From a virus (taxonomy: Duplodnaviria; Heunggongvirae; Uroviricota; Caudoviricetes), in the IMG/VR virus record IMGVR_UViG_2513237251_000009: 64,000 nt of DNA, one strand, 5' to 3'. Below the pieces are notes generated by a model. It was not told where the DNA came from and did no database searches. It saw only the letters and a program-made list of their open reading frames with translations. The position numbers were made by a program, and so were the translations under genes. This document shows, piece by piece, positions 3,105 to 60,017 of the stretch; position 1 is the first letter of the stretch; every line of letters starts with the position of its first letter.

Positions 3105-4154
3105 TTACCCGAGCACGCCGGTTGCAAAGGCGTGATCAAGAAAACGAAAAATTAAATCAACCTGGGAACCATGCTTTTCTTCGAACGCCAGCGGATCCGC
3201 ATGAAGCTCGTTGTGATGCTCCCGACACAGCGGTAGCGTGAAAATATCGTGGGATTTTGTTCCCATTCCGCCCTGACCATGACCAATCAGATGATGAGGA
3301 TCGTCCGCTGGCTTACCACAACACGCACACGGCTGTGTCTTTACCCAGCGTGTGTATTTCTCATTTACCCAGCGGCGACGTTTAGGTCGTTTCATGAAGG
3401 ATTCCGGAGACTCCGGATCAACGGCAATGCTGACCACCGTCTTTTCCTGTGGTGGGTTCTGTTGCTGGTGGGTGTGAGGCGGTAGCGCAATATTTTTTGT
3501 GCGCTGCTTCAGTATGCTGGTGGCGGTCTGTTCTCCCGGTATGATGTCGCTTTCACGGTATACGGAGCGGATTTTTTCCGCCGGTAATCCCAGAGAGCGA
3601 CGCGATACTGCCTCAGGTAATGCGTCCACCACCTGATTGCAGACTGCCCACCAGGATAATTCAGCCAGCGATAATTCCCGCTCCTGCGTGCCATTCATTA
3701 CATGGCGTATGACGTCAATCATCCAGGCTGTCAGATTTTGTTGAGTAAGTTGCTCAAGTGATTCGGAGGTCTGGTCGCGCAGCTGGTTGTCGCAGTGCCA
3801 GCACAACACCATTGCGCCAGCACCGTAACTGTGAATAACGGTTTCGCTGTGATGATAATCGCCGTGTGGCCACTGGCAGGATTTCACGTGACGTAATAAC
3901 CAGTCAGACAGTGCACCAGCGCCGCCAGCTGCACGAATCACCCGCTCATCGCTGAAAAATGGCAGCAGTGATTTATCTTCCGCCAGCGGCTGGCGAACAG
4001 CAGGAACCGCTCCAGATGGCAGCGCCCGCATGTTTTTCGGTTCCGGCTCCACCAGCACCCTGCCGCGATGAAAAACTGGCAATGATTCACGACCGGGCTT
4101 AAGGACCACCAGCCCGAGTTCCGGAACCAGAACAGGTCGAAGTAATACCCGCAC
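3105..4154 (-). CDS. DUF968/YdfU-like protein with C-terminal Cys/His motif
   Basis: GTG start with GGAGG RBS by homology to 53107-54156; motif PCACCGKPADDPHHLIGHGQGG...CREHHNELH; track ORF extends to 4208. Confidence 0.65.
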   Translation of the reverse strand: MRVLLRPVLVPELGLVVLKPGRESLPVFHRGRVLVEPEPKNMRALPSGAVPAVRQPLAEDKSLLPFFSDERVIRAAGGAGALSDWLLRHVKSCQWPHGDYHHSETVIHSYGAGAMVLCWHCDNQLRDQTSESLEQLTQQNLTAWMIDVIRHVMNGTQERELSLAELSWWAVCNQVVDALPEAVSRRSLGLPAEKIRSVYRESDIIPGEQTATSILKQRTKNIALPPHTHQQQNPPQEKTVVSIAVDPESPESFMKRPKRRRWVNEKYTRWVKTQPCACCGKPADDPHHLIGHGQGGMGTKSHDIFTLPLCREHHNELHADPLAFEEKHGSQVDLIFRFLDHAFATGVLG

Positions 4155-4155
4155 A

Positions 4156-4428
4156 TTACCTCCAGACGCGCTGACGGTAGCAGGCATGTGTCCGTGGCAG
4201 ATGTGCACGAACAGGAAGATATACAGAAACGGTCCAGGTCAGACGATCAGCGTTCAGACTCCGCTCCACACGGACACCGCGACGCAGATACGCCTCTTGA
4301 AGCATATCTGCCTCATCGATCGTACAGAACAGATAGTGAAACCAGCCATACTGAGGCGCACGAAAACGCCTCCCCTGCTTAATTTCCGGGTCGGCTTCAG
4401 AATTGTGGGATTTTATGTGTTGTGTCAT
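4156..4428 (-). CDS. Hypothetical prophage protein (rem position)
   Basis: 90 aa; diverged paralog at 54158-54436 with shared C-terminal pattern. Confidence 0.45.
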   Translation of the reverse strand: MTQHIKSHNSEADPEIKQGRRFRAPQYGWFHYLFCTIDEADMLQEAYLRRGVRVERSLNADRLTWTVSVYLPVRAHLPRTHACYRQRVWR

Positions 4429-8418: not shown

Positions 8419-9460
8419 CGCACCAATCTGGGCAATCCAGAGCTTCGAAGGTGCGGCCCCGTTCTTCTGAGTCCAGCGGTTCGAATACACCTCCCCCATG
8501 AGCTCCCACAGCTTCCAGGCCGTTTCCGTTGCTGATAAATCCGTTGTCACGTTCCCACTGTTCGCGTGCAGCCCGGATTTCCTGAACTGCCCGTGATGCC
8601 GTGCCACCTGATGCTGCATGGCTTCCCCCCTTGCTGACTGGTTTTACCTGTGCCCTGACGTGCTGCACGTGGCGGGCAAATTTCTGCTCCCACTGAACCT
8701 GCGTGAAAACCTTCCCCTCCGCCATCCAGTAATCCCGGAATGCGGCAAGCTCAGCAGGTGTAAATTCCGGCTCAGGCAGAGCCATACCCCACACTGCTGC
8801 CCGTTGTCGAAAATCCGGCGACGGCTGCCAGACAGTAGTCATCGAAAATTTCCCGATCGGTTCGCTCAGGCCGTCCAGGTATTCAGGTTCGGCTGTCTGC
8901 AACGGCGCACCATTCGACTCACTGGTCGGAATACTCTCGCGCGCGTTATGTGTGGGGTTTAATTCTGTATCTGTATCTTTATCTGTATCTTTATCTGTCG
9001 TGACTTGTCGTGACAGATGCGTGACACGTCGTGACTCATCGTGACAATCAGCATTATGTTTCCGCAGCTTTTCCCGCTCCCGCTGCGCTCTCTTGCGCTC
9101 TGCCGGGGATTTTGCCGTTTGCGAAACGTTACCATTGTCCTCTTTCAGCACCTGACGTTTTTCCCATCCGGAAATAAGGTCACCATCCAGAACCCGCCCC
9201 TGCATTGCATGCAAAATTGAATCAATTACGTCTTCCGTCACATCAAGCGCACTTGCTAAATCTTCCGTCGTGACATCAATGTGACCACGTAGTGACACGC
9301 CGTGACATGTCGTGACATTTCGTGACGCGCTCACCAGAAGATGGATATACACTGCCATCACTGTTGCGATTGGCTGTCCTGATACCCTGGCAATCGTTCG
9401 CCACTTGGGGTCATTTGGCATGTCATGCCACAATCTGAGCCAGGCATTAGCCATACTCAC
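8411..9460 (-). CDS. Replication initiator (O-like) with embedded origin iterons
   Basis: 349 aa; two clusters of CGTGAC direct repeats inside the ORF. Confidence 0.6.
   Translation of the reverse strand: MSMANAWLRLWHDMPNDPKWRTIARVSGQPIATVMAVYIHLLVSASRNVTTCHGVSLRGHIDVTTEDLASALDVTEDVIDSILHAMQGRVLDGDLISGWEKRQVLKEDNGNVSQTAKSPAERKRAQREREKLRKHNADCHDESRRVTHLSRQVTTDKDTDKDTDTELNPTHNARESIPTSESNGAPLQTAEPEYLDGLSEPIGKFSMTTVWQPSPDFRQRAAVWGMALPEPEFTPAELAAFRDYWMAEGKVFTQVQWEQKFARHVQHVRAQVKPVSKGGSHAASGGTASRAVQEIRAAREQWERDNGFISNGNGLEAVGAHGGGVFEPLDSEERGRTFEALDCPDWCDD
8955..9050. repeat. Iteron-like direct repeats (TATCT units and 5x CGTGAC) inside O-like gene
   Basis: gtcgtgac ttgtcgtgac ...gcgtgac ...gtcgtgac ...atcgtgac. 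Confidence 0.6.
9268..9330. repeat. Second iteron cluster (7x GTGAC)
   Basis: cgtgacatcaatgtgaccacgtagtgacacgccgtgacatgtcgtgacatttcgtgac. Confidence 0.55.
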
Positions 9461-9522
9461 CTCTTCTGATACCGAACTTTACCCTCGAACATCCGGAAGA
9501 AATCCGGCATGAATATTGTTGG

Positions 9523-9948
9523 TCAATGCACGACAACAGCATTACCAGGCTGACCCCCACTGTTAGTCAGGGTGCCCCAGGCGATCGCCGCTGCGACAAA
9601 ATCATCCACATCTTTCACCAGCCGATCCCTCCGTTCGACGATCTCACGGTAATATTCAGAGCTGTGACTGCGCATACGGGCCACCAGCAGAGGCGGCATT
9701 GCCTTTTCGATCGCCGGTAACAGAGCCTGCATTTTTTCAACTGCATCAGGGGTGTCTTTCTCTATCCAGCGGAAAATTTTCTGGGTATTGCGAGCCAGGG
9801 CTTCCGGATGGCTGTCGTCGTACAGTTCAGGAAACGTCATACCCAACTCAAAATAAGCCTGGGTTATTCCAGCTGCCGGAACTTTTTCGCCATCAGGACG
9901 CGCCCAGGCATTCATCGCCATGCGGATGTGTTCATGCTTGATTTTCAT
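9523..9948 (-). CDS. YdaT-like (CII-position) regulator
   Basis: 141 aa MKIKHEHIRMAMNAW...AVVVH; paralog 58804-59229. Confidence 0.6.
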   Translation of the reverse strand: MKIKHEHIRMAMNAWARPDGEKVPAAGITQAYFELGMTFPELYDDSHPEALARNTQKIFRWIEKDTPDAVEKMQALLPAIEKAMPPLLVARMRSHSSEYYREIVERRDRLVKDVDDFVAAAIAWGTLTNSGGQPGNAVVVH

Positions 9949-10171
9949 GAATCCCCCCTTGGTTAGAAGGCGGATTATGATCAGAATCGGGAATGACAAC
10001 CGTCGGTATGTGTAACTCATATTTGAGCGCCCCGGCAGTGACTGCCTGAATTAGCAACGCCCATTTCCACGGAACGTCTTCCCCCCACATGCTGACTGTG
10101 GTTTTTGACGTTCCTAGAGCGGCGGCTGTTTTAACAACTCCGCCAAAATAGCCTAATACTTCTGATTTTTT
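9932..10171 (-). CDS. Cro-like (YdaS-type) HTH protein
   Basis: About 79 aa MKKSEVLGYFGGVVKTAAALGTSKTTVSMW; divergent from the CI-like gene. Confidence 0.55.
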   Translation of the reverse strand, partial: KKSEVLGYFGGVVKTAAALGTSKTTVSMWGEDVPWKWALLIQAVTAGALKYELHIPTVVIPDSDHNPPSNQGGIHENQA

Positions 10172-10265
10172 CATGAGTCGCTCCATAAAACTGAACGCCA
10201 AAAGTTTAATAATCAAAACCAAAGAAAGTCAAGAAACAAAACCATCTGTGTTTTAAAATCAAAAC
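10172..10265. promoter_or_regulatory. Divergent operator/promoter region of the cro-cI switch
   Basis: AT-rich 94-bp spacer with repeated TTAATAATCAAAAC / TTTAAAATCAAAAC motifs. Confidence 0.45.
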
Positions 10266-10904
10266 ATGAACAAGCAAACAATATCTGAACGCATAACCCA
10301 ACGTATGCATGCGCTAAACTTGAAAGGCAAAGACCTTGTCAATGCCACTGGCGCATCAAAAGGCTCCGTAAGTCAATGGATGAACGGTGGAGGAGCGCCG
10401 TCCTCGCGTTACATAAGTTCACTGGCAAAGATATTGAAAGTAAACGAAAATTGGCTTCTTAATGGAGGAGAGTTAAATACAGGTGATTCGCTTGATCTAT
10501 CTTTACCGCCGATAAAAACGGTTCCGCTACTATCACTTCAGCAGGCAGCAAGCTGGAGTGATTATATGAAAAATTCCTCAATAACCTCTTGTGTGCAGCT
10601 TGTCGGAGAAATCCCGGCCAATACCTTTGCTGTTGTTCTAGAGAGTGACAGTATGTCGACATCTGGTGGTGGAGTTTCCATCCCAAATGGTTCAACAGTT
10701 TTTGTTGATCCCGATCGAATCGTACAACCAGGAAATATTGTCCTTGCCTTACCCAAAGGGACCACAACGCCTGTCATTCGCAAACTGGAGATAGAAGGGC
10801 CGGATATTCTTTTAGTCCCCACGAATCCTCGCTACCCTTCAATTATGCTGGATGATCTATCTTGCATATTGGGAGTATGCTTTAAAATTCAACAAGATAT
10901 TTAA
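10266..10904 (+). CDS. CI-like repressor (XRE HTH plus S24 LexA-type peptidase domain)
   Basis: 212 aa; N-terminal HTH LKGKDLVNATGASKGSVSQWMNG; C-terminal S24-like ..SDSMS...NGSTVFVDP...K. Confidence 0.75.
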   Translation: MNKQTISERITQRMHALNLKGKDLVNATGASKGSVSQWMNGGGAPSSRYISSLAKILKVNENWLLNGGELNTGDSLDLSLPPIKTVPLLSLQQAASWSDYMKNSSITSCVQLVGEIPANTFAVVLESDSMSTSGGGVSIPNGSTVFVDPDRIVQPGNIVLALPKGTTTPVIRKLEIEGPDILLVPTNPRYPSIMLDDLSCILGVCFKIQQDI

Positions 10905-11196
10905 CCAACCTCATCTATTTGATTAACTGTATGCCATCGTAGTGATGGCGTAACAGCTGCCTGCTTAAAATGTTTTGATAAAAAAACATTGACCTTAAAT
11001 GTTCGTTTTTCTAAACTTCATTCATTCCCTCACCCCGCCCCACAGAATGCAGGGCAATACTTCGAGTTACCAGGCAGTGGTCAGGGGTTAAGTAGCCAGC
11101 CCGAGGCGTAAGAACATGACGGCAGGGTTCAACTTTAATAACTATGCAGCAGGTTTTTGTTCCGCTACCCCGGCGTTAAGGGGAAATGAGGTCAAC

Positions 11197-11349
11197 ATGG
11201 ATACGCTCAATCTTGGCAACAACGAATCTCTGGTATGTGGCGTGTTCCCCAACCAGGACGGTACGTTCACCGCGATGACGTATACCAAAAGCAAAACGTT
11301 TAAAACTGAAGCTGGCGCGCGTCGCTGGTTAGCCAGAAACACTGACTGA
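11197..11349 (+). CDS. ydfA: YdfA-like (DUF1391) small protein
   Basis: 50 aa MDTLNLGNNESLVCGVFPNQDGTFTAMTYTKSKTFKTEAGARRWLARNTD. Confidence 0.6.
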   Translation: MDTLNLGNNESLVCGVFPNQDGTFTAMTYTKSKTFKTEAGARRWLARNTD

Positions 11350-11360
11350 TGAGGTTGACG

Positions 11361-11999
11361 ATGGAATTTAAAGATTTACCTCCTTCAATCCAGGAGATTG
11401 CAGCACACACACTTCGTCATCGTCTGAACGAACTTGAATTGGAATCGGTAACGAAAAAAGACACTGATAATATGGCTCGTAATGTGCGCGATGCGTTTAC
11501 CGGATTGTATTTCTGTGCGTCTATAAATAAACACGACTCAGAGAGTGTGGCAAATAAAATTGCAGAAACGACAGCGCAAAACATCAATACGAAACCAACG
11601 GAAGAAGAAATTGATCAGTTTGCTCATGATGCTGGTTTAAAAAACAAGAAAGAAAAATCGCCATATGCGGGGAACATGTTTGTTTATGACAATCTCATCA
11701 GAATTCGTGGCGAAATTCCGGCGGAATACCTGGCAAGAGTCCATCAGGCATTGCTTAAAAATTTGGAAACAGAATTATTTGATGGCAACACTAACGGTTT
11801 CTTCATGGTATCAGGCCTTGAGAAAGACTGGGATGCAGAAAAACGCTGGAATGTTGCTACATGGTTATTCAGTAACAGAGCCGCTGCACTGGAAGCTTCG
11901 GCATGTATTTGCGGCCTGTTCTTAACAGACCACAAATATAATCTGGATGTGTACAGTTATATTTACGCTGAACACGGTCCACTCTGGATTGACTGGTAA
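11361..11999 (+). CDS. Hypothetical 212-aa protein, no recognised family
   Basis: ATG with GAGG RBS next to the ydfA stop; occupies the ydfB/ydfC slot. Confidence 0.5.
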   Translation: MEFKDLPPSIQEIAAHTLRHRLNELELESVTKKDTDNMARNVRDAFTGLYFCASINKHDSESVANKIAETTAQNINTKPTEEEIDQFAHDAGLKNKKEKSPYAGNMFVYDNLIRIRGEIPAEYLARVHQALLKNLETELFDGNTNGFFMVSGLEKDWDAEKRWNVATWLFSNRAAALEASACICGLFLTDHKYNLDVYSYIYAEHGPLWIDW

Positions 12000-12209
12000 T
12001 TATAAGGAAACACCAGCAGGGCCGCGGCGACCAACAGAACGATTAAAATCAATAATGCCATTATAAAGGACATTATTTAATTTATCGTCGAATGCTGATT
12101 CTGTGAGCCTCAACTCTGAATGAGTTTTTAATAACCCTGATTGCCTGAGTTGATTTACCAGGCATTCAATCTGTTTTTCAATAAGCGGATTTCTTTTTTT
12201 GTTTGGCAT
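12000..12209 (-). CDS. Hypothetical 69-aa protein, convergent with the 212-aa gene
   Basis: ATG 12209 preceded by GGAGG RBS; MPNKKRNPLIEKQIECLVNQLRQSGLL... Confidence 0.45.
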   Translation of the reverse strand: MPNKKRNPLIEKQIECLVNQLRQSGLLKTHSELRLTESAFDDKLNNVLYNGIIDFNRSVGRRGPAGVSL

Positions 12210-12546
12210 TTTATCCTCCATTGAGGTTCTGGGTTAAAAATGGAGACCAACACGCTGTCACGTGTGGTCGTGCGCCGGACACGGATAAGAATCCGGTACT
12301 GACAGTTTACTGAAAGGATATTTCCCTGAAAAGTCAGTGCATAACGCGAAAGCGTACGGCGAAGCTCTTTCCCTTAGAAGGCTTGTCGTTAGATTTCTTC
12401 GAACGTGCGCTTCCGGTTGTGGCACTCCGCGAAATGGCGCGGCGGTAAGTATGGCGGGGTTATTCCTTCCCCATTGAGGACACCGGGTTGTCAGGTTGAC
12501 CATACGCTTAAGTGACAACCCCGCTGCAACGCCCTCTGTTATCAAT

Positions 12547-12605
12547 TTTCTGGTGACGTTTGGCGGTATCAGTTTTACTCCGTGGCTGCTCTGCCGCCCT
12601 TTTTA
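12547..12605 (+). ncRNA. dicF: DicF small RNA (variant copy)
   Basis: TTTCTGGTGACGTTTGGCGGTATCAGTTTTACTCCGTGGCTGCTCTGCCGCCCTTTTT; one A-to-G difference from copy at 61773. Confidence 0.85.
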
Positions 12606-12773
12606 AAGTGAATTTTGTGATGCGGTGAATGCGGCTAAGCGCACGCGGAACAGTTAAAACCAAAAACAGTGTTATGGGTGGATTCTCTGTATCCGGCGTT
12701 AATTGTTAACTGGTTAACGTCACCTGGAGGCACCAGGCACTGCATCACAAAATTCATTGTTGAGGACGCGATA

Positions 12774-12962
12774 ATGGAAACGTTATTACCAAACGTTAAT
12801 ACGTCTGAAGGTTGTTTTGATATTGGTGTTCTGCTCAGTAACCGGGAGTTTACTGAAGATGCCATTAACATGAGGAAATATGAGCCTTATCTGCTCAATG
12901 ATAATTCCATACTTTCCCGAATTGCTCTTCTTGAACTTGGTATTTTCGGAGAACGTCAATGA
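12774..12962 (+). CDS. dicB: Cell-division inhibitor DicB
   Basis: 62 aa METLLPNVNTSEGCFDIGVLLSN... Confidence 0.8.
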   Translation: METLLPNVNTSEGCFDIGVLLSNREFTEDAINMRKYEPYLLNDNSILSRIALLELGIFGERQ

Positions 12963-13147
12963 CTTCAGCATTTGCACTGATGATGACGGTTTTTCTTATA
13001 ACGGGTGAATCACAGAATGTGATTACCGGAATTTATGCCAGTAAAGAATCCTGCCTCCAGGCAAGAGACGAGCAAAAAATTTCTGGTGAATGCCTCCCGG
13101 TAAAAAAAGTATCGCTGTACCTGAATAACGAAACACCGGCTGGATAA
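12959..13147 (+). CDS. ydfD: YdfD-like small membrane protein
   Basis: 62 aa MTSAFALMMTVFLITGESQNV...; ATGA overlap with dicB stop. Confidence 0.65.
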   Translation: MTSAFALMMTVFLITGESQNVITGIYASKESCLQARDEQKISGECLPVKKVSLYLNNETPAG

Positions 13148-13239
13148 CCCTCCAGCCATATTAACACCATACCAACGGATTAAAAATGCCAGCAATGGCA
13201 GGGATTTGTTCACCCTTAAATCTGTAATGAGGTTTATCA

Positions 13240-14484
13240 ATGAGCACTGATAAAGAAGAATTTGCGCTATATTGCGAAGCAAAAAATGACAAAGTCAGAA
13301 AACGTCTGGGAATTAAAGGTGGTTTTTACTGGACTACAGCAAAAAAATTATCTGTTGCCATCTCCCGCTGCATTACCGCAATGGATGACAACGATTATGA
13401 TGAAGACGACTTTAAAAAACCCGTTCGCGTCCATTTACCCGTTGTGAATGACCTTCCACCTGAAGGCGTGTTTGATACCGAATTCTGCAACCGATACGAA
13501 AAAGGCGGGGAAGATGGCATTACAATGGTATTTATCGCGCCCTCTCCCTCCGTGCAGGAGAAACCAGCCAGTACTGACAATACCAACGTCAACGGCGAAG
13601 ACATGACGGAGATTGAGGAGAATATGCTCCTGCCGGTTTCTGGTCAGGAGCTGCCCATTCGCTGGCTTGCGCAACACGGCAGCGAAAAACCAGTAACGCA
13701 CGTTGCACGGGAAGAACTTCAGGCATTACATATAGCACGGGCGGAAGAACTGCCGGCTGTTACTGCCTTGGCCATTTCTCACAAAACAAAGCTGCTCGAC
13801 CCGCTGGAGATTCGCGACCTTCACAAACTGGTACGCGACACTGACAAAGTTTTCCCTAATCCCGGTAATTCAGACCTGGGACTGATAACTGCTTTTTTCG
13901 AGGCATACCTGGACGCTGACTACACTGATCGGGGTCTGCTGACAAAAGAGTGGATGAAAGGAAATCGTGTTTCGCGTATCACCCGTACGGCTTCCGGTGC
14001 AAATGCCGGTGGCGGGAACAAAACCGATCGCAATCCGAATTTAGTACACACCTTCGATACGCTGGATGTGGAGATTGCAGCAGCCACACTTCCGATGGAT
14101 TTTAATATTTATGAAATTCCGGGCAGCGTTTATCGTCGCGCAAAAGAAATCGTCCTGAAAAGAGAAAGTCCGTTCAAAGAATGGTCCGCAGCACTTCGCG
14201 CAACCCCGGGTATTCTGGACTATTCCCGCGCCGCTATTTTTGCACTTATCCGGAGCGCTCACCCTGAGTTTTATCACTACCCGGGACGCCTTCAGGGGTA
14301 TATCAACGCCTACTTAACGGAGACTGATCACGAGAACCCCAGCAAGGAAACTCTCACTGCTGCACGACATACACCGGAAAAAGATATCCTGGAAGAAGTT
14401 AACCGCGAACTGTCTGCTAAGCAGGAAACAGAAGAAGAAAATGATGAAGAAAAACCGCAACCATCTTGCGCAATGGCAGAATGA
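13240..14484 (+). CDS. Hypothetical 414-aa acidic protein (ydfE position)
   Basis: Long ORF whose 3' end overlaps the truncated integrase frame. Confidence 0.5.
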   Translation: MSTDKEEFALYCEAKNDKVRKRLGIKGGFYWTTAKKLSVAISRCITAMDDNDYDEDDFKKPVRVHLPVVNDLPPEGVFDTEFCNRYEKGGEDGITMVFIAPSPSVQEKPASTDNTNVNGEDMTEIEENMLLPVSGQELPIRWLAQHGSEKPVTHVAREELQALHIARAEELPAVTALAISHKTKLLDPLEIRDLHKLVRDTDKVFPNPGNSDLGLITAFFEAYLDADYTDRGLLTKEWMKGNRVSRITRTASGANAGGGNKTDRNPNLVHTFDTLDVEIAAATLPMDFNIYEIPGSVYRRAKEIVLKRESPFKEWSAALRATPGILDYSRAAIFALIRSAHPEFYHYPGRLQGYINAYLTETDHENPSKETLTAARHTPEKDILEEVNRELSAKQETEEENDEEKPQPSCAMAE

Positions 14485-15017
14485 TAATCAGAAGAAATCT
14501 GGCAAAAGACCGTTTTACAGTACCAAAAACACAGGCGGGAACCAATCGTGTGATTCACCTTATTAAGCCCGCAATCGACGCTCTCCGGAGTCAGATGGCA
14601 CTAACGAGACTGAGCAAAGAGCATATCATCGATGTTCACCTCAGAGAATTCGGCAGAACAGAGAAACAAAAATGTACCTTTGTTTTTCAACCTGAAGTGT
14701 CAGCGAAAGTAAAAAATTATGGCGACCATTTTACCGTTGACTCAATAAGGCAGATGTGGGACGCAGCGGTAAAGCGTGCCGGAATCCGCCATCGCAAATC
14801 GTATCAGTCGAGACACACTTATGCCTGCTGGTCGTTAACAGCAGGAGCTAACCCGGCATTCATTGCAAACCAGATGGGCCATGCAGATGCGCAAATGGTG
14901 TTTCAGGTGTACGGGAAATGGATGTCAGAAAATAATAATGCGCAGGTAACGCTGTTAAATACACAGTTAAGCGAGTTTGCCCCAACCATGCCCCATAACG
15001 AAGCGATGAAAAGTTAA
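14466..15017 (+). pseudogene. Phage tyrosine integrase, 5'-truncated remnant (C-terminal catalytic domain only)
   Basis: Only about 180 codons; catalytic-region motifs HRKSYQSRHTYA...GHADAQMVFQVYGKWM; no N-terminal domain. Confidence 0.7.
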
Positions 15018-59625: not shown

Positions 59626-59997
59626 ATGCAAAAAAAAGAAATTCGCCGTTTACGTCTCAAGGAGTGGTTTAAAGATAAAACTCTGCCACCCAAAGAGAAG
59701 AGCTACCTATCTCAACTAATGAGTGGGAGAGCCTCGTTTGGAGAAAAGGCTGCCAGAAGAATAGAGCAAACATACGGGATGCCGGAAGGGTATCTGGATG
59801 CGGAATACGCAGAACAACCGGGGGGTTCTCCACCACATGCAGGGTTAACGTCTAATCAACTGGAATTATTGCAGATTTTTTCAGCCTTCCCTGAGGATGA
59901 GCAACGCCAGATAATCAGCGAGTTAAAGCAGAAAAAAGAATCAATGGAAGATCTCATAGCGAGATGGATTGCGGCGCAAAAATGCCGCCGCGCCTGA
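59626..59997 (+). CDS. DicA/CI-like XRE-family repressor
   Basis: 124 aa from MQKKEIRRLRLKEWFKD...; DicA-like C-terminal LTSNQLELLQIFSAFPEDEQ. Confidence 0.6.
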   Translation: MQKKEIRRLRLKEWFKDKTLPPKEKSYLSQLMSGRASFGEKAARRIEQTYGMPEGYLDAEYAEQPGGSPPHAGLTSNQLELLQIFSAFPEDEQRQIISELKQKKESMEDLIARWIAAQKCRRA

Positions 59998-60017
59998 GTT
60001 ATAAAACCGGAGGAAAC

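Follow-up and report, generated by a model that had tools for sequence, protein, structure and literature searches.

Sequence comparison places a convergent gene pair of an O157:H7 lambdoid prophage in a polymorphic family of two-gene cassettes

Accessory loci expressed in lysogens typically lie antisense to genes of the lytic program, sieB/sas being a known example (PMC7067206), and the SieB/Esc/sas system joins an exclusion factor and a phage antidote that are coupled by antisense transcription, as cited in the same paper. Here we describe two convergent open reading frames (ORFs), ORF-A and ORF-B, within a 64,000-nucleotide (nt) stretch of DNA from the virus record IMGVR_UViG_2513237251_000009 (referred to here as the window), where they correspond to ECs_2211 and ECs_2212 of Escherichia coli O157:H7 Sakai, and we compare them with this and other described systems. 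ORF-A and its counterparts at other loci are called X, ORF-B and its counterparts Y. The pair resembles SieB/Esc/sas of P22 and lambda, and sieB of Rac, in having a lysogen-expressed gene in the early-left region near the repressor; like Rac sieB, which is oriented opposite to its DUF1391 neighbor, ORF-B lies on the strand opposite the early transcript and is translated in uninduced cells. It differs in that Pfam and PHROGs scans detected no sequence similarity to SieB, in that SieB is a membrane protein of ~190 amino acids (aa) with Esc as an in-frame internal product of the same gene whereas here two separate soluble proteins are encoded, and in an architecture of head plus variable tail that exists in several alleles. 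The details of the antisense coupling between SieB and Esc are reportedly given by Ranade and Poteete (1993).

Other systems resemble the pair in part. Type II toxin-antitoxin (TA) systems, such as the RelB/ParE pair of the second prophage in the window, also consist of two small adjacent genes that are inherited together in prophage early regions, and the sizes found here (~70 aa, and ~110 aa for the C-terminal domain of ORF-A), with one acidic and one basic partner, are comparable. Unlike type II TA genes, ORF-A and ORF-B are convergent rather than co-transcribed, belong to different transcriptional programs and match no known toxin or antitoxin family. The polymorphic toxin-immunity systems CdiA-CT/CdiI and Rhs-CT/RhsI share with our loci a conserved N-terminal part, a sharply bounded variable C-terminal part, a co-swapped small gene and tandem arrays (here in Salmonella loci L003-L006). 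In contrast to these systems, X/Y are tiny (66-212 aa) and cytoplasmic with no secretion, delivery or known toxin domain, and the partner is convergent with its own conserved 5' region instead of lying downstream on the same strand as an immunity gene does. In lambda cII/OOP and in type I TA systems (Rac ralR/ralA, Bacillus subtilis txpA/RatA), tail-to-tail genes overlap at their 3' ends with no terminator between them and yield complementary transcripts; ralR/ralA is annotated in Rac. A type I TA system combines a small hydrophobic membrane toxin with a non-coding antisense RNA, whereas here both partners are conserved, translated proteins and neither is a small hydrophobic one (grand average of hydropathy, GRAVY, -0.5). 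Lastly, YdfB/YdfC of K-12 Qin occupy the same slot of the dicBF operon, between ydfA and the DicF precursor; they are unrelated in sequence, lie both on the operon strand and have neither a head nor a convergent partner.

Our data indicate that ECs_2211/ECs_2212 represents the type I allele in a polymorphic family of two-gene cassettes that have a head in common, and that the cassette site is the start of the early-left (dicBF-type) operon of Rac- and Qin-like lambdoid prophages. The first-pass annotation of this DNA had described a 212-aa gene (11361-11999) and a convergent 69-aa gene (12000-12209) with abutting stop codons and a strong Shine-Dalgarno (SD) sequence, all of which we confirmed (SD GGAGGA, 12214-12219); it missed that the pair is one allele of such a family with a shared N-terminal head. 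Family alignment and PHROG matches divide ORF-A, which is acidic (isoelectric point, pI, 5.2), into a head, an acidic low-complexity linker and a C-terminal domain (C-domain) with the motifs FDGxxNGxF and WxFS..AAxEA. We searched 1.84 billion representative proteins exhaustively with HMMER for both domains. The head was always found at residue 1, where it starts ~45 protein clusters (lengths 42 to 201 aa) with unrelated remainders, head-only proteins of ~60-70 aa among them, while the C-domain occurred outside its own family in just two clusters, Salmonella P0176 (286 aa) and P0189 (220 aa), both with an N-terminal region that differs from that of ORF-A. ORF-A is modular, a ~58-aa head joined to a rare C-terminal domain. 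Of 5426 complete E. coli genomes, 915 contained head-coding DNA, with 1468 places in all; head-type genes occur in ~17% of the genomes with up to 5 copies per genome. The C-domain is constrained, with a ratio of nonsynonymous to synonymous substitution rates (dN/dS) of 0.13-0.18. Since its invariant polar residues are few (Y, D, N, S, E, W), the data suggest a binding domain rather than an enzyme.

Cassettes were surveyed by an IMG/VR scan with the head profile, covering 80 loci, and by targeted look-ups. We found at least six cassette types that follow one plan, in which the operon strand encodes a head joined to a tail and the 3' end of this gene meets a small ORF convergent to it. In type I, X has 212 aa, Y has 69 aa and the stop codons abut (stop-to-stop distance 0), while the two genes overlap in type II (X 112-119 aa, Y 64 aa, overlap 12-33 nt), type III (X 179-186 aa, Y 80 aa with a zinc ribbon, 20-44 nt), type IV (X 201 aa, Y 63 aa, 23 nt), type V (X 66 aa and head only, Y 59 aa, 68 nt) and type VI (X 124 aa, Y 72 aa, 38 nt). 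Y-II and Y-III are under purifying selection (dN/dS 0.15-0.27). Pairwise BLAST placed the homology breakpoints at 11503-11568, in the head or linker, on the left side and at 12197-12269, at the first Y codons or just upstream, on the right side; therefore, the exchanged module comprises the X tail and the Y body. The conserved flanks of the exchange are the head-coding DNA and the Y translation-initiation region, which is identical in types I-III (ATGGAGGATAAAATG). In Salmonella L003-L006 (5001-6513), a type I cassette (200 + 69 aa) is followed in tandem by a type II cassette (119 + 64-68 aa), and each has a separate copy of the hairpin flank described below.

We found that the C-domain and ORF-B keep each other's company across lineages. 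Among the complete E. coli genomes, ORF-B is present in 596 (743 places) and the C-domain in 599 (750 places), and the type I cassette is found in ~11% of the genomes. Escherichia sp. E4742 and a Salmonella element of different organisation also show the tail-to-tail geometry with abutting stops. The genes for P0176 and P0189 each meet a convergent ORF-B homologue at the 3' end (overlaps 11 and 53 nt); relative to the window, identity at these loci amounts to 28-31% for the C-domain and 44-52% for Y, and another N-terminus has taken the place of that of ORF-A. Two further distant Y-I homologues, P0211 and P0220, are convergent and lie beside C-domain genes. Every C-domain gene examined has a convergent ORF-B homologue at its 3' end, and each of the three type I lineages combines an acidic X (charge -10 to -12) with a basic Y-I (+3.6 to +4.6). 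These comparisons indicate that the ORF-A C-domain and ORF-B are a real, obligately linked unit. We did not take mirror-tree co-evolution as evidence of interaction, as physical linkage alone would yield the same signal.

Linkage of this kind might also arise if X and Y were two independent accessory genes ('morons') that travel together between shared recombination flanks, with a convergence that has no functional meaning. Lambdoid genomes are mosaic at conserved flanks, homology at this locus breaks off within the head and where Y begins, and each gene can decay separately. We consider this explanation unlikely given that the pairing of C-domain and Y-I outlasts divergence to ~30% and 45-50% identity, replacement of the N-terminus and transfer to a Cox-type switch context, that eight independent pairings (the six types and two distant type I lineages) hold a stop-to-stop spacing of 0 to -68 nt, and that the two genes occur in 596 vs 599 E. 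coli genomes.

The distant C-domain/Y-I pairs of Salmonella L015-L018 and L103-L107 follow a P2-type Cox gene, near an integrase and helix-turn-helix (HTH) repressors, in a Cox-type lysis-lysogeny switch that differs from the switch of the window. In L103-L105, ~1.3 kb downstream of the type I-like pair, another convergent pair of small ORFs (1469-1850; 73 + 78 aa, 77-nt overlap) has no head.

The coding status of ORF-B was assessed from substitution patterns and published expression data. ORF-B is basic (pI 9.7), has a GRAVY of -0.53 with no hydrophobic segment, and contains the conserved motifs IEKQIEC, SGLLK and C-terminal GRRGPAGVxL, which are retained in Salmonella lineages whose proteins are 44-52% identical. 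Comparison of Escherichia with Salmonella copies gave a dN/dS of 0.19-0.26 and numerous synonymous substitutions, which indicates that ORF-B is under purifying selection as a protein gene; together with the C-domain value, this ratio argues that ORF-A and ORF-B are real genes and not chance ORFs. In the Sakai RNA-seq and ribosome profiling (Ribo-seq) data of Hücker et al. (PMC5597208, S2 Table), ECs2212 has an RNA signal of 46.2 reads per kilobase per million (RPKM), a footprint RPKM of 34.0, a ribosome coverage value (RCV) of 0.74 and an ORF coverage of 0.71 in lysogeny broth (LB), and corresponding values of 23.9, 24.8, 0.95 and 0.73 in the brain heart infusion (BHI) control; both sets exceed the authors' criteria for translated ORFs, and translation collapses under cold and salt stress (PMC5597208). 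For dicB, on the early-operon strand, the LB values are near background (RNA 6.9, footprints 1.5, coverage 0.07; PMC5597208), with the caveat that dicB is multicopy in Sakai. On the basis of the published Ribo-seq, ORF-B is translated in the uninduced Sakai lysogen, as one would expect of an accessory gene that is expressed in lysogens. ECs2211/2212 are not listed in two other Sakai omics supplements.

These data bear on whether ORF-B is a mere template for antisense RNA against ORF-A, or one of the two ORFs a chance frame. The convergent 3' overlap recalls cII/OOP and type I TA layouts, and no terminator separates the genes. As a sole explanation this is largely refuted and in our judgment very improbable, given the dN/dS, the protein motifs kept at such divergence, the strong SD and the ribosome footprints over 71-73% of ORF-B; ORF-B as a purely antisense RNA was rejected, with dN/dS and Ribo-seq pointing to a translated protein. 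An additional antisense role of the ORF-B transcript is possible.

ORF-B also varies within the O157-type loci. A homopolymer at codons 4-6 has seven A residues (A7, intact) in 27 of 32 loci and six (A6) in the other 5, and the A6 allele frameshifts ORF-B after codon 5. The difference could reflect slipped-strand on/off variation or sequencing error in older assemblies.

We hypothesize that the X tail and Y may form a cognate antagonistic pair split across the lysogeny/lysis switch, with Y as the immunity-like partner of an early effector X, a reading that we favor tentatively and stop short of calling probable. In the lysogen, only Y would be made, and it would neutralize X that is leaky or that comes from a related superinfecting phage. 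Inactivation of the CI-like repressor, an S24, SOS-type protein encoded upstream of the operon, would release early transcription and thereby production of X. Since there is no terminator between the genes, the early transcript must run antisense through Y to reach dicF/dicB, and this head-on transcription would suppress Y by transcriptional interference and antisense pairing; Y cannot come from the early transcript, being on the opposite strand. X would then be free to act as an early effector against the host or a competitor, with the head as a common adaptor or oligomerisation module. Y is favored as the immunity-like partner because the conserved N-terminus, the variable C-terminus and the small co-varying partner match polymorphic toxin-immunity cassettes. 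That the type I tail keeps its Y-I homologue after divergence to ~30% identity and replacement of the head also speaks for a cognate pair.

Several observations weigh against this hypothesis. X of type V is almost head-only, yet has a Y. In the phage collection, we found no full-length ORF-A and only head-domain matches, which were in Shiga toxin (Stx) phages, and the head protein of the one examined, Stx2 phage PA2, has no convergent partner. Y has been lost from several loci with an intact X: it is deleted in L070/L075 from IMG/VR (X of 211 aa, window 12046-12207 missing), the type I Y has a C-terminal frameshift in Salmonella L005/L006, and it is frameshifted in the five A6 loci. Such loss is unexpected if X is strongly toxic, although X is repressed in lysogens. 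A promoter scan of the window returned no convincing sigma-70 promoter for ORF-B, its sole match overlapping the start codon. The AlphaFold2 models are of low confidence (predicted local distance difference test, pLDDT, 61-62). Furthermore, linkage alone could stem from the position between two recombination flanks, and the acidic/basic pattern fits the opposite polarity, with Y as effector and X as antidote, equally well.

That opposite polarity is nearly as good an account as the one we favor, although we still consider it rather doubtful. Similar to SieB/Esc, Y would be a lysogen-expressed exclusion or abortive-infection factor and X its early-expressed cognate antidote, which would let the lytic growth of the phage itself or of a sibling escape Y, and the polymorphism of the cassettes would reflect an arms race of exclusion and escape. 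Translation of Y in the lysogen fits such a factor, sieB of Rac lies beside the DUF1391 gene ydaF in the corresponding position and likewise in opposite orientation, Y-I is small and basic with X acidic as in many toxin/antitoxin pairs, and loss of Y with X intact is tolerated. Moreover, P22 sieB/esc/sas is a precedent for antisense-coupled exclusion and escape (PMC7067206). Against these points stand the lack of similarity to SieB or any PADLOC model, the conserved head, which is left unexplained on a mere antidote, and the finding that Y-II, Y-IV and Y-V are not basic.

With respect to promoters, the authors of the Sakai study report from a BPROM run a promoter 213 bp 5' of the ORF-B start and no terminator downstream (PMC5597208); our terminator prediction likewise returned none between or after ORF-A and ORF-B, and ORF-B promoter candidates picked by eye were weak and not conserved. 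Types V (L099 4313-4360) and VI (L101 4556-4600) have the extended -10-like sequences TGGTATACT and TGCTACCTT, located just 3' of an H1-like hairpin and ~35-40 nt before the Y start. At that site, the type I window has the hairpins H2 and H3 and no obvious promoter.

Between the cargo slot and the DicF precursor, we found a conserved right flank with three hairpins (H1-H3). H2 exists in five sequence variants that all keep the pairing, two of them mutual reverse complements, and RNAalifold, which showed compensatory changes at six base pairs, recovered the three hairpins. In single-sequence folding, the advantage over shuffled controls was only modest (z -2.2 and -1.9), with H3 alone weak. The block also occurs in Sp12 (~61440-61520) and K-12 Qin (L002 ~3575-3640), neither of which has a Y of types I-III, and the H2 variants do not follow Y type, H2 being the same in types I-III. 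Given its presence without a type I-III Y and its independence of Y type, the block may be part of the early transcript (DicF precursor), of a Y leader or of both. Candidate roles are RNA processing or antitermination, a Y leader and a DNA operator; among RNA families, Rfam has none for the block and matched DicF only. In L075/L070, an insertion of ~660 bp (~3671; 3758-4417) lies between H1 and the DicF precursor; on its minus strand, an ORF of 172 aa encodes a coiled coil and a CxxC..CxxC motif. As a separate matter, a role of ORF-A as N-like antiterminator was considered and rejected, for the head lacks an arginine-rich motif and the hairpins are located 3' of the head.

The hairpins raise a distinctly unlikely alternative, in which the pair is regulatory and serves as a second convergent switch that tunes lysis commitment or early-operon read-through into dicF/dicB, for example with Y binding nucleic acid at the adjacent palindrome or hairpins and X sequestering Y. 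Such a role would suit the conserved, covarying palindrome/hairpin block directly beside the Y start, the basic nature of Y-I, a convergent layout of the kind that gives transcriptional interference, and the HTH_3 domain (Pfam E 8e-6) that the distant C-domain protein P0176 carries between its N-terminal region and its C-domain. It is disfavored by the independence of H2 variants from Y type, by the K-12 Qin and Sp12 hairpins that occur without any Y, by the lack of a detected DNA-binding fold in Y and by the absence of the HTH from the E. coli C-domain proteins and P0189.

We next turn to family assignments. Pfam, NCBIfam and PADLOC gave no significant match for ORF-A or ORF-B and no known domain in the other X tails or Y proteins, and PHROGs places the two only in families of unknown function (phrog_2151 and phrog_4274), consistent with the first-pass statement that neither protein belongs to a recognised family. 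No toxin, nuclease, membrane or other effector domain was recognisable in ORF-A or ORF-B. Neither has a sequence or fold match in PDB or a match among the predicted structures compared, the only hit of the PDB sequence profiles being at chance level (Noc, E 0.02), and the C-domain profile found no match in a scan of genome contigs. Homologues are confined to Enterobacteriaceae (Escherichia, Salmonella, Cronobacter), all unnamed or 'hypothetical'. RefSeq annotates exactly these two coding sequences and labels them hypothetical proteins. In the paper text searched, there was no mention of Ybl81, the WP accessions or ECs2211/2212, and the literature on svsR and UTI89 filamentation is unrelated to the gene pair. 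The gene families are already catalogued, as hypothetical proteins and PHROGs, while head/tail modularity, the constant convergent partner and cassette exchange appear to be undescribed in the searchable literature.

Coordinates of the genomic setting are collected in Table 1. The window at 9001-15000 is 100% identical to the Sakai prophage Sp11, so that prophage A of the window is Sp11 and prophage B is Sp12. On the + strand, the order is repressor, ydfA, ORF-A (with ORF-B convergent), DicF, dicB and ydfD, which places ORF-A in the repressor-controlled early (dicBF-type) operon; in Qin, the early operon is under repressor control (PMC5069750). The first-pass placement of the slot between ydfA and DicF, filled by ydfB/ydfC in Qin, was borne out by K-12 Qin, where ydfB and ydfC are unrelated to ORF-A/ORF-B and DNA homology to the window ends at 11340 and restarts at 12269. 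The different cargo claimed for prophage B was also found: the Sp12 slot holds a RelB/ParE toxin-antitoxin pair, a ydfA remnant, a zinc-binding gene of the ECs_2282 family and ydfC. A 118-aa + strand ORF (60785-61141) that overlaps the Sp12 zinc-ribbon gene is probably spurious. Annotated starts differ for two neighbors: Sakai ECs_2210 (ydfA) has a longer start (11116), and RefSeq gives only the C-terminal 113 aa of the prophage A repressor (Sakai ECs_2209 and its TR01 homologue) despite identical DNA, so the RefSeq start of this repressor is probably under-annotated.

Table 1. Positions of the features discussed, in coordinates of the 64,000-nt window
Feature	Coordinates	Strand	Remarks
CI-like repressor	10266..10904	+	212 aa, HTH_3 + Peptidase_S24; upstream of operon
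ydfA (DUF1391)	11197..11349	+	Pfam E 1e-29; upstream gene, same operon as ORF-A
ORF-A (X)	ATG 11361 to TAA 11997-11999	+	212 aa; ECs_2211 / WP_000394548.1; phrog_2151
Head domain of ORF-A	11361..11534	+	aa 1-58; predicted helical hairpin; MEFKDLP..IQEIAA..NVRDAFTGLY
C-terminal domain of ORF-A	11655..11999	+	aa 99-212; predicted beta-beta-alpha-beta-beta-alpha-beta; highly conserved
Swappable module (X tail + Y body)	~11570..12200		from BLAST breakpoints
ORF-B (Y)	ATG 12209 to TAA 12002-12000	-	69 aa; ECs_2212 / WP_001133037.1; phrog_4274
A7 homopolymer	12194..12200	-	ORF-B codons 4-6; intact in window
SD of ORF-B (GGAGGA)	12214-12219	-	4 nt 5' of start
Conserved right flank	12215..12296		three hairpins; between cargo slot and DicF precursor
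H3	12215-12221 / 12240-12246		anti-SD (CTCCAT, Y sense) pairs with ORF-B SD
H2	12246-12254 / 12261-12268		covarying palindrome
H1	12275-12279 / 12292-12296		invariant, CCGGA-N12-TCCGG
DicF small RNA	12548..12599	+	Rfam 75 bits; downstream, same + strand operon
Sp12 RelB + RelE/ParE pair	59964-60489	+	directly 3' of prophage B repressor
Sp12 ydfA remnant	60700-60774	+	25 codons
Sp12 zinc-ribbon gene (ECs_2282 family)	60920-61126	-	antisense to early operon
Sp12 ydfC	61213-61431	+	

Taken together, the breakpoints and the different cargo of related prophages indicate that the slot beside the repressor is a site of variable cargo with recombination boundaries. The first-pass annotation had proposed that this repressor-proximal slot is of the type that harbors superinfection-exclusion or defense genes. 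The variable slot held up, while the pair matches no PADLOC defense model and has no effector domain: the defense-detection check with PADLOC-DB v2 returned zero families at E <= 1 for ORF-A, ORF-B and YdfA. Rac sieB beside ydaF offers a positional precedent, and Sp12 has its RelB/ParE pair in the corresponding slot. As a hypothesis, a superinfection-exclusion or defense role of the pair is plausible.

If X and Y were two unrelated morons, the locus would be ordinary mosaic cargo. If instead they are a cognate pair, they would represent a new architecture for antagonistic gene pairs, in which the partners are split between lysogenic and lytic transcription programs, head-on transcription couples them and cassette exchange creates their diversity. 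A broader proposal, in which we have low confidence, is that the cassettes of enterobacterial lambdoid prophages could be polymorphic effector-immunity modules of a class not recognised before, which would decide phage-phage encounters as a form of kin discrimination. The small immunity protein would be supplied by the lysogen and the head-tethered effector by a phage that infects or has been induced, neutralization would be limited to cognate alleles, and the convergent-transcription switch would flip the balance at induction. Carriers of the cassettes include the major Shiga-toxin-producing lineages O157, O121, O145, O111, O26 and O103, and O157 strains carry many lambdoid prophages. A cognate pair would offer a concrete way to study how lambdoid prophages that share a host compete or are kept from harming themselves, and it might influence how DicF and DicB are expressed, as both are encoded farther 3' on the early transcript that carries X.

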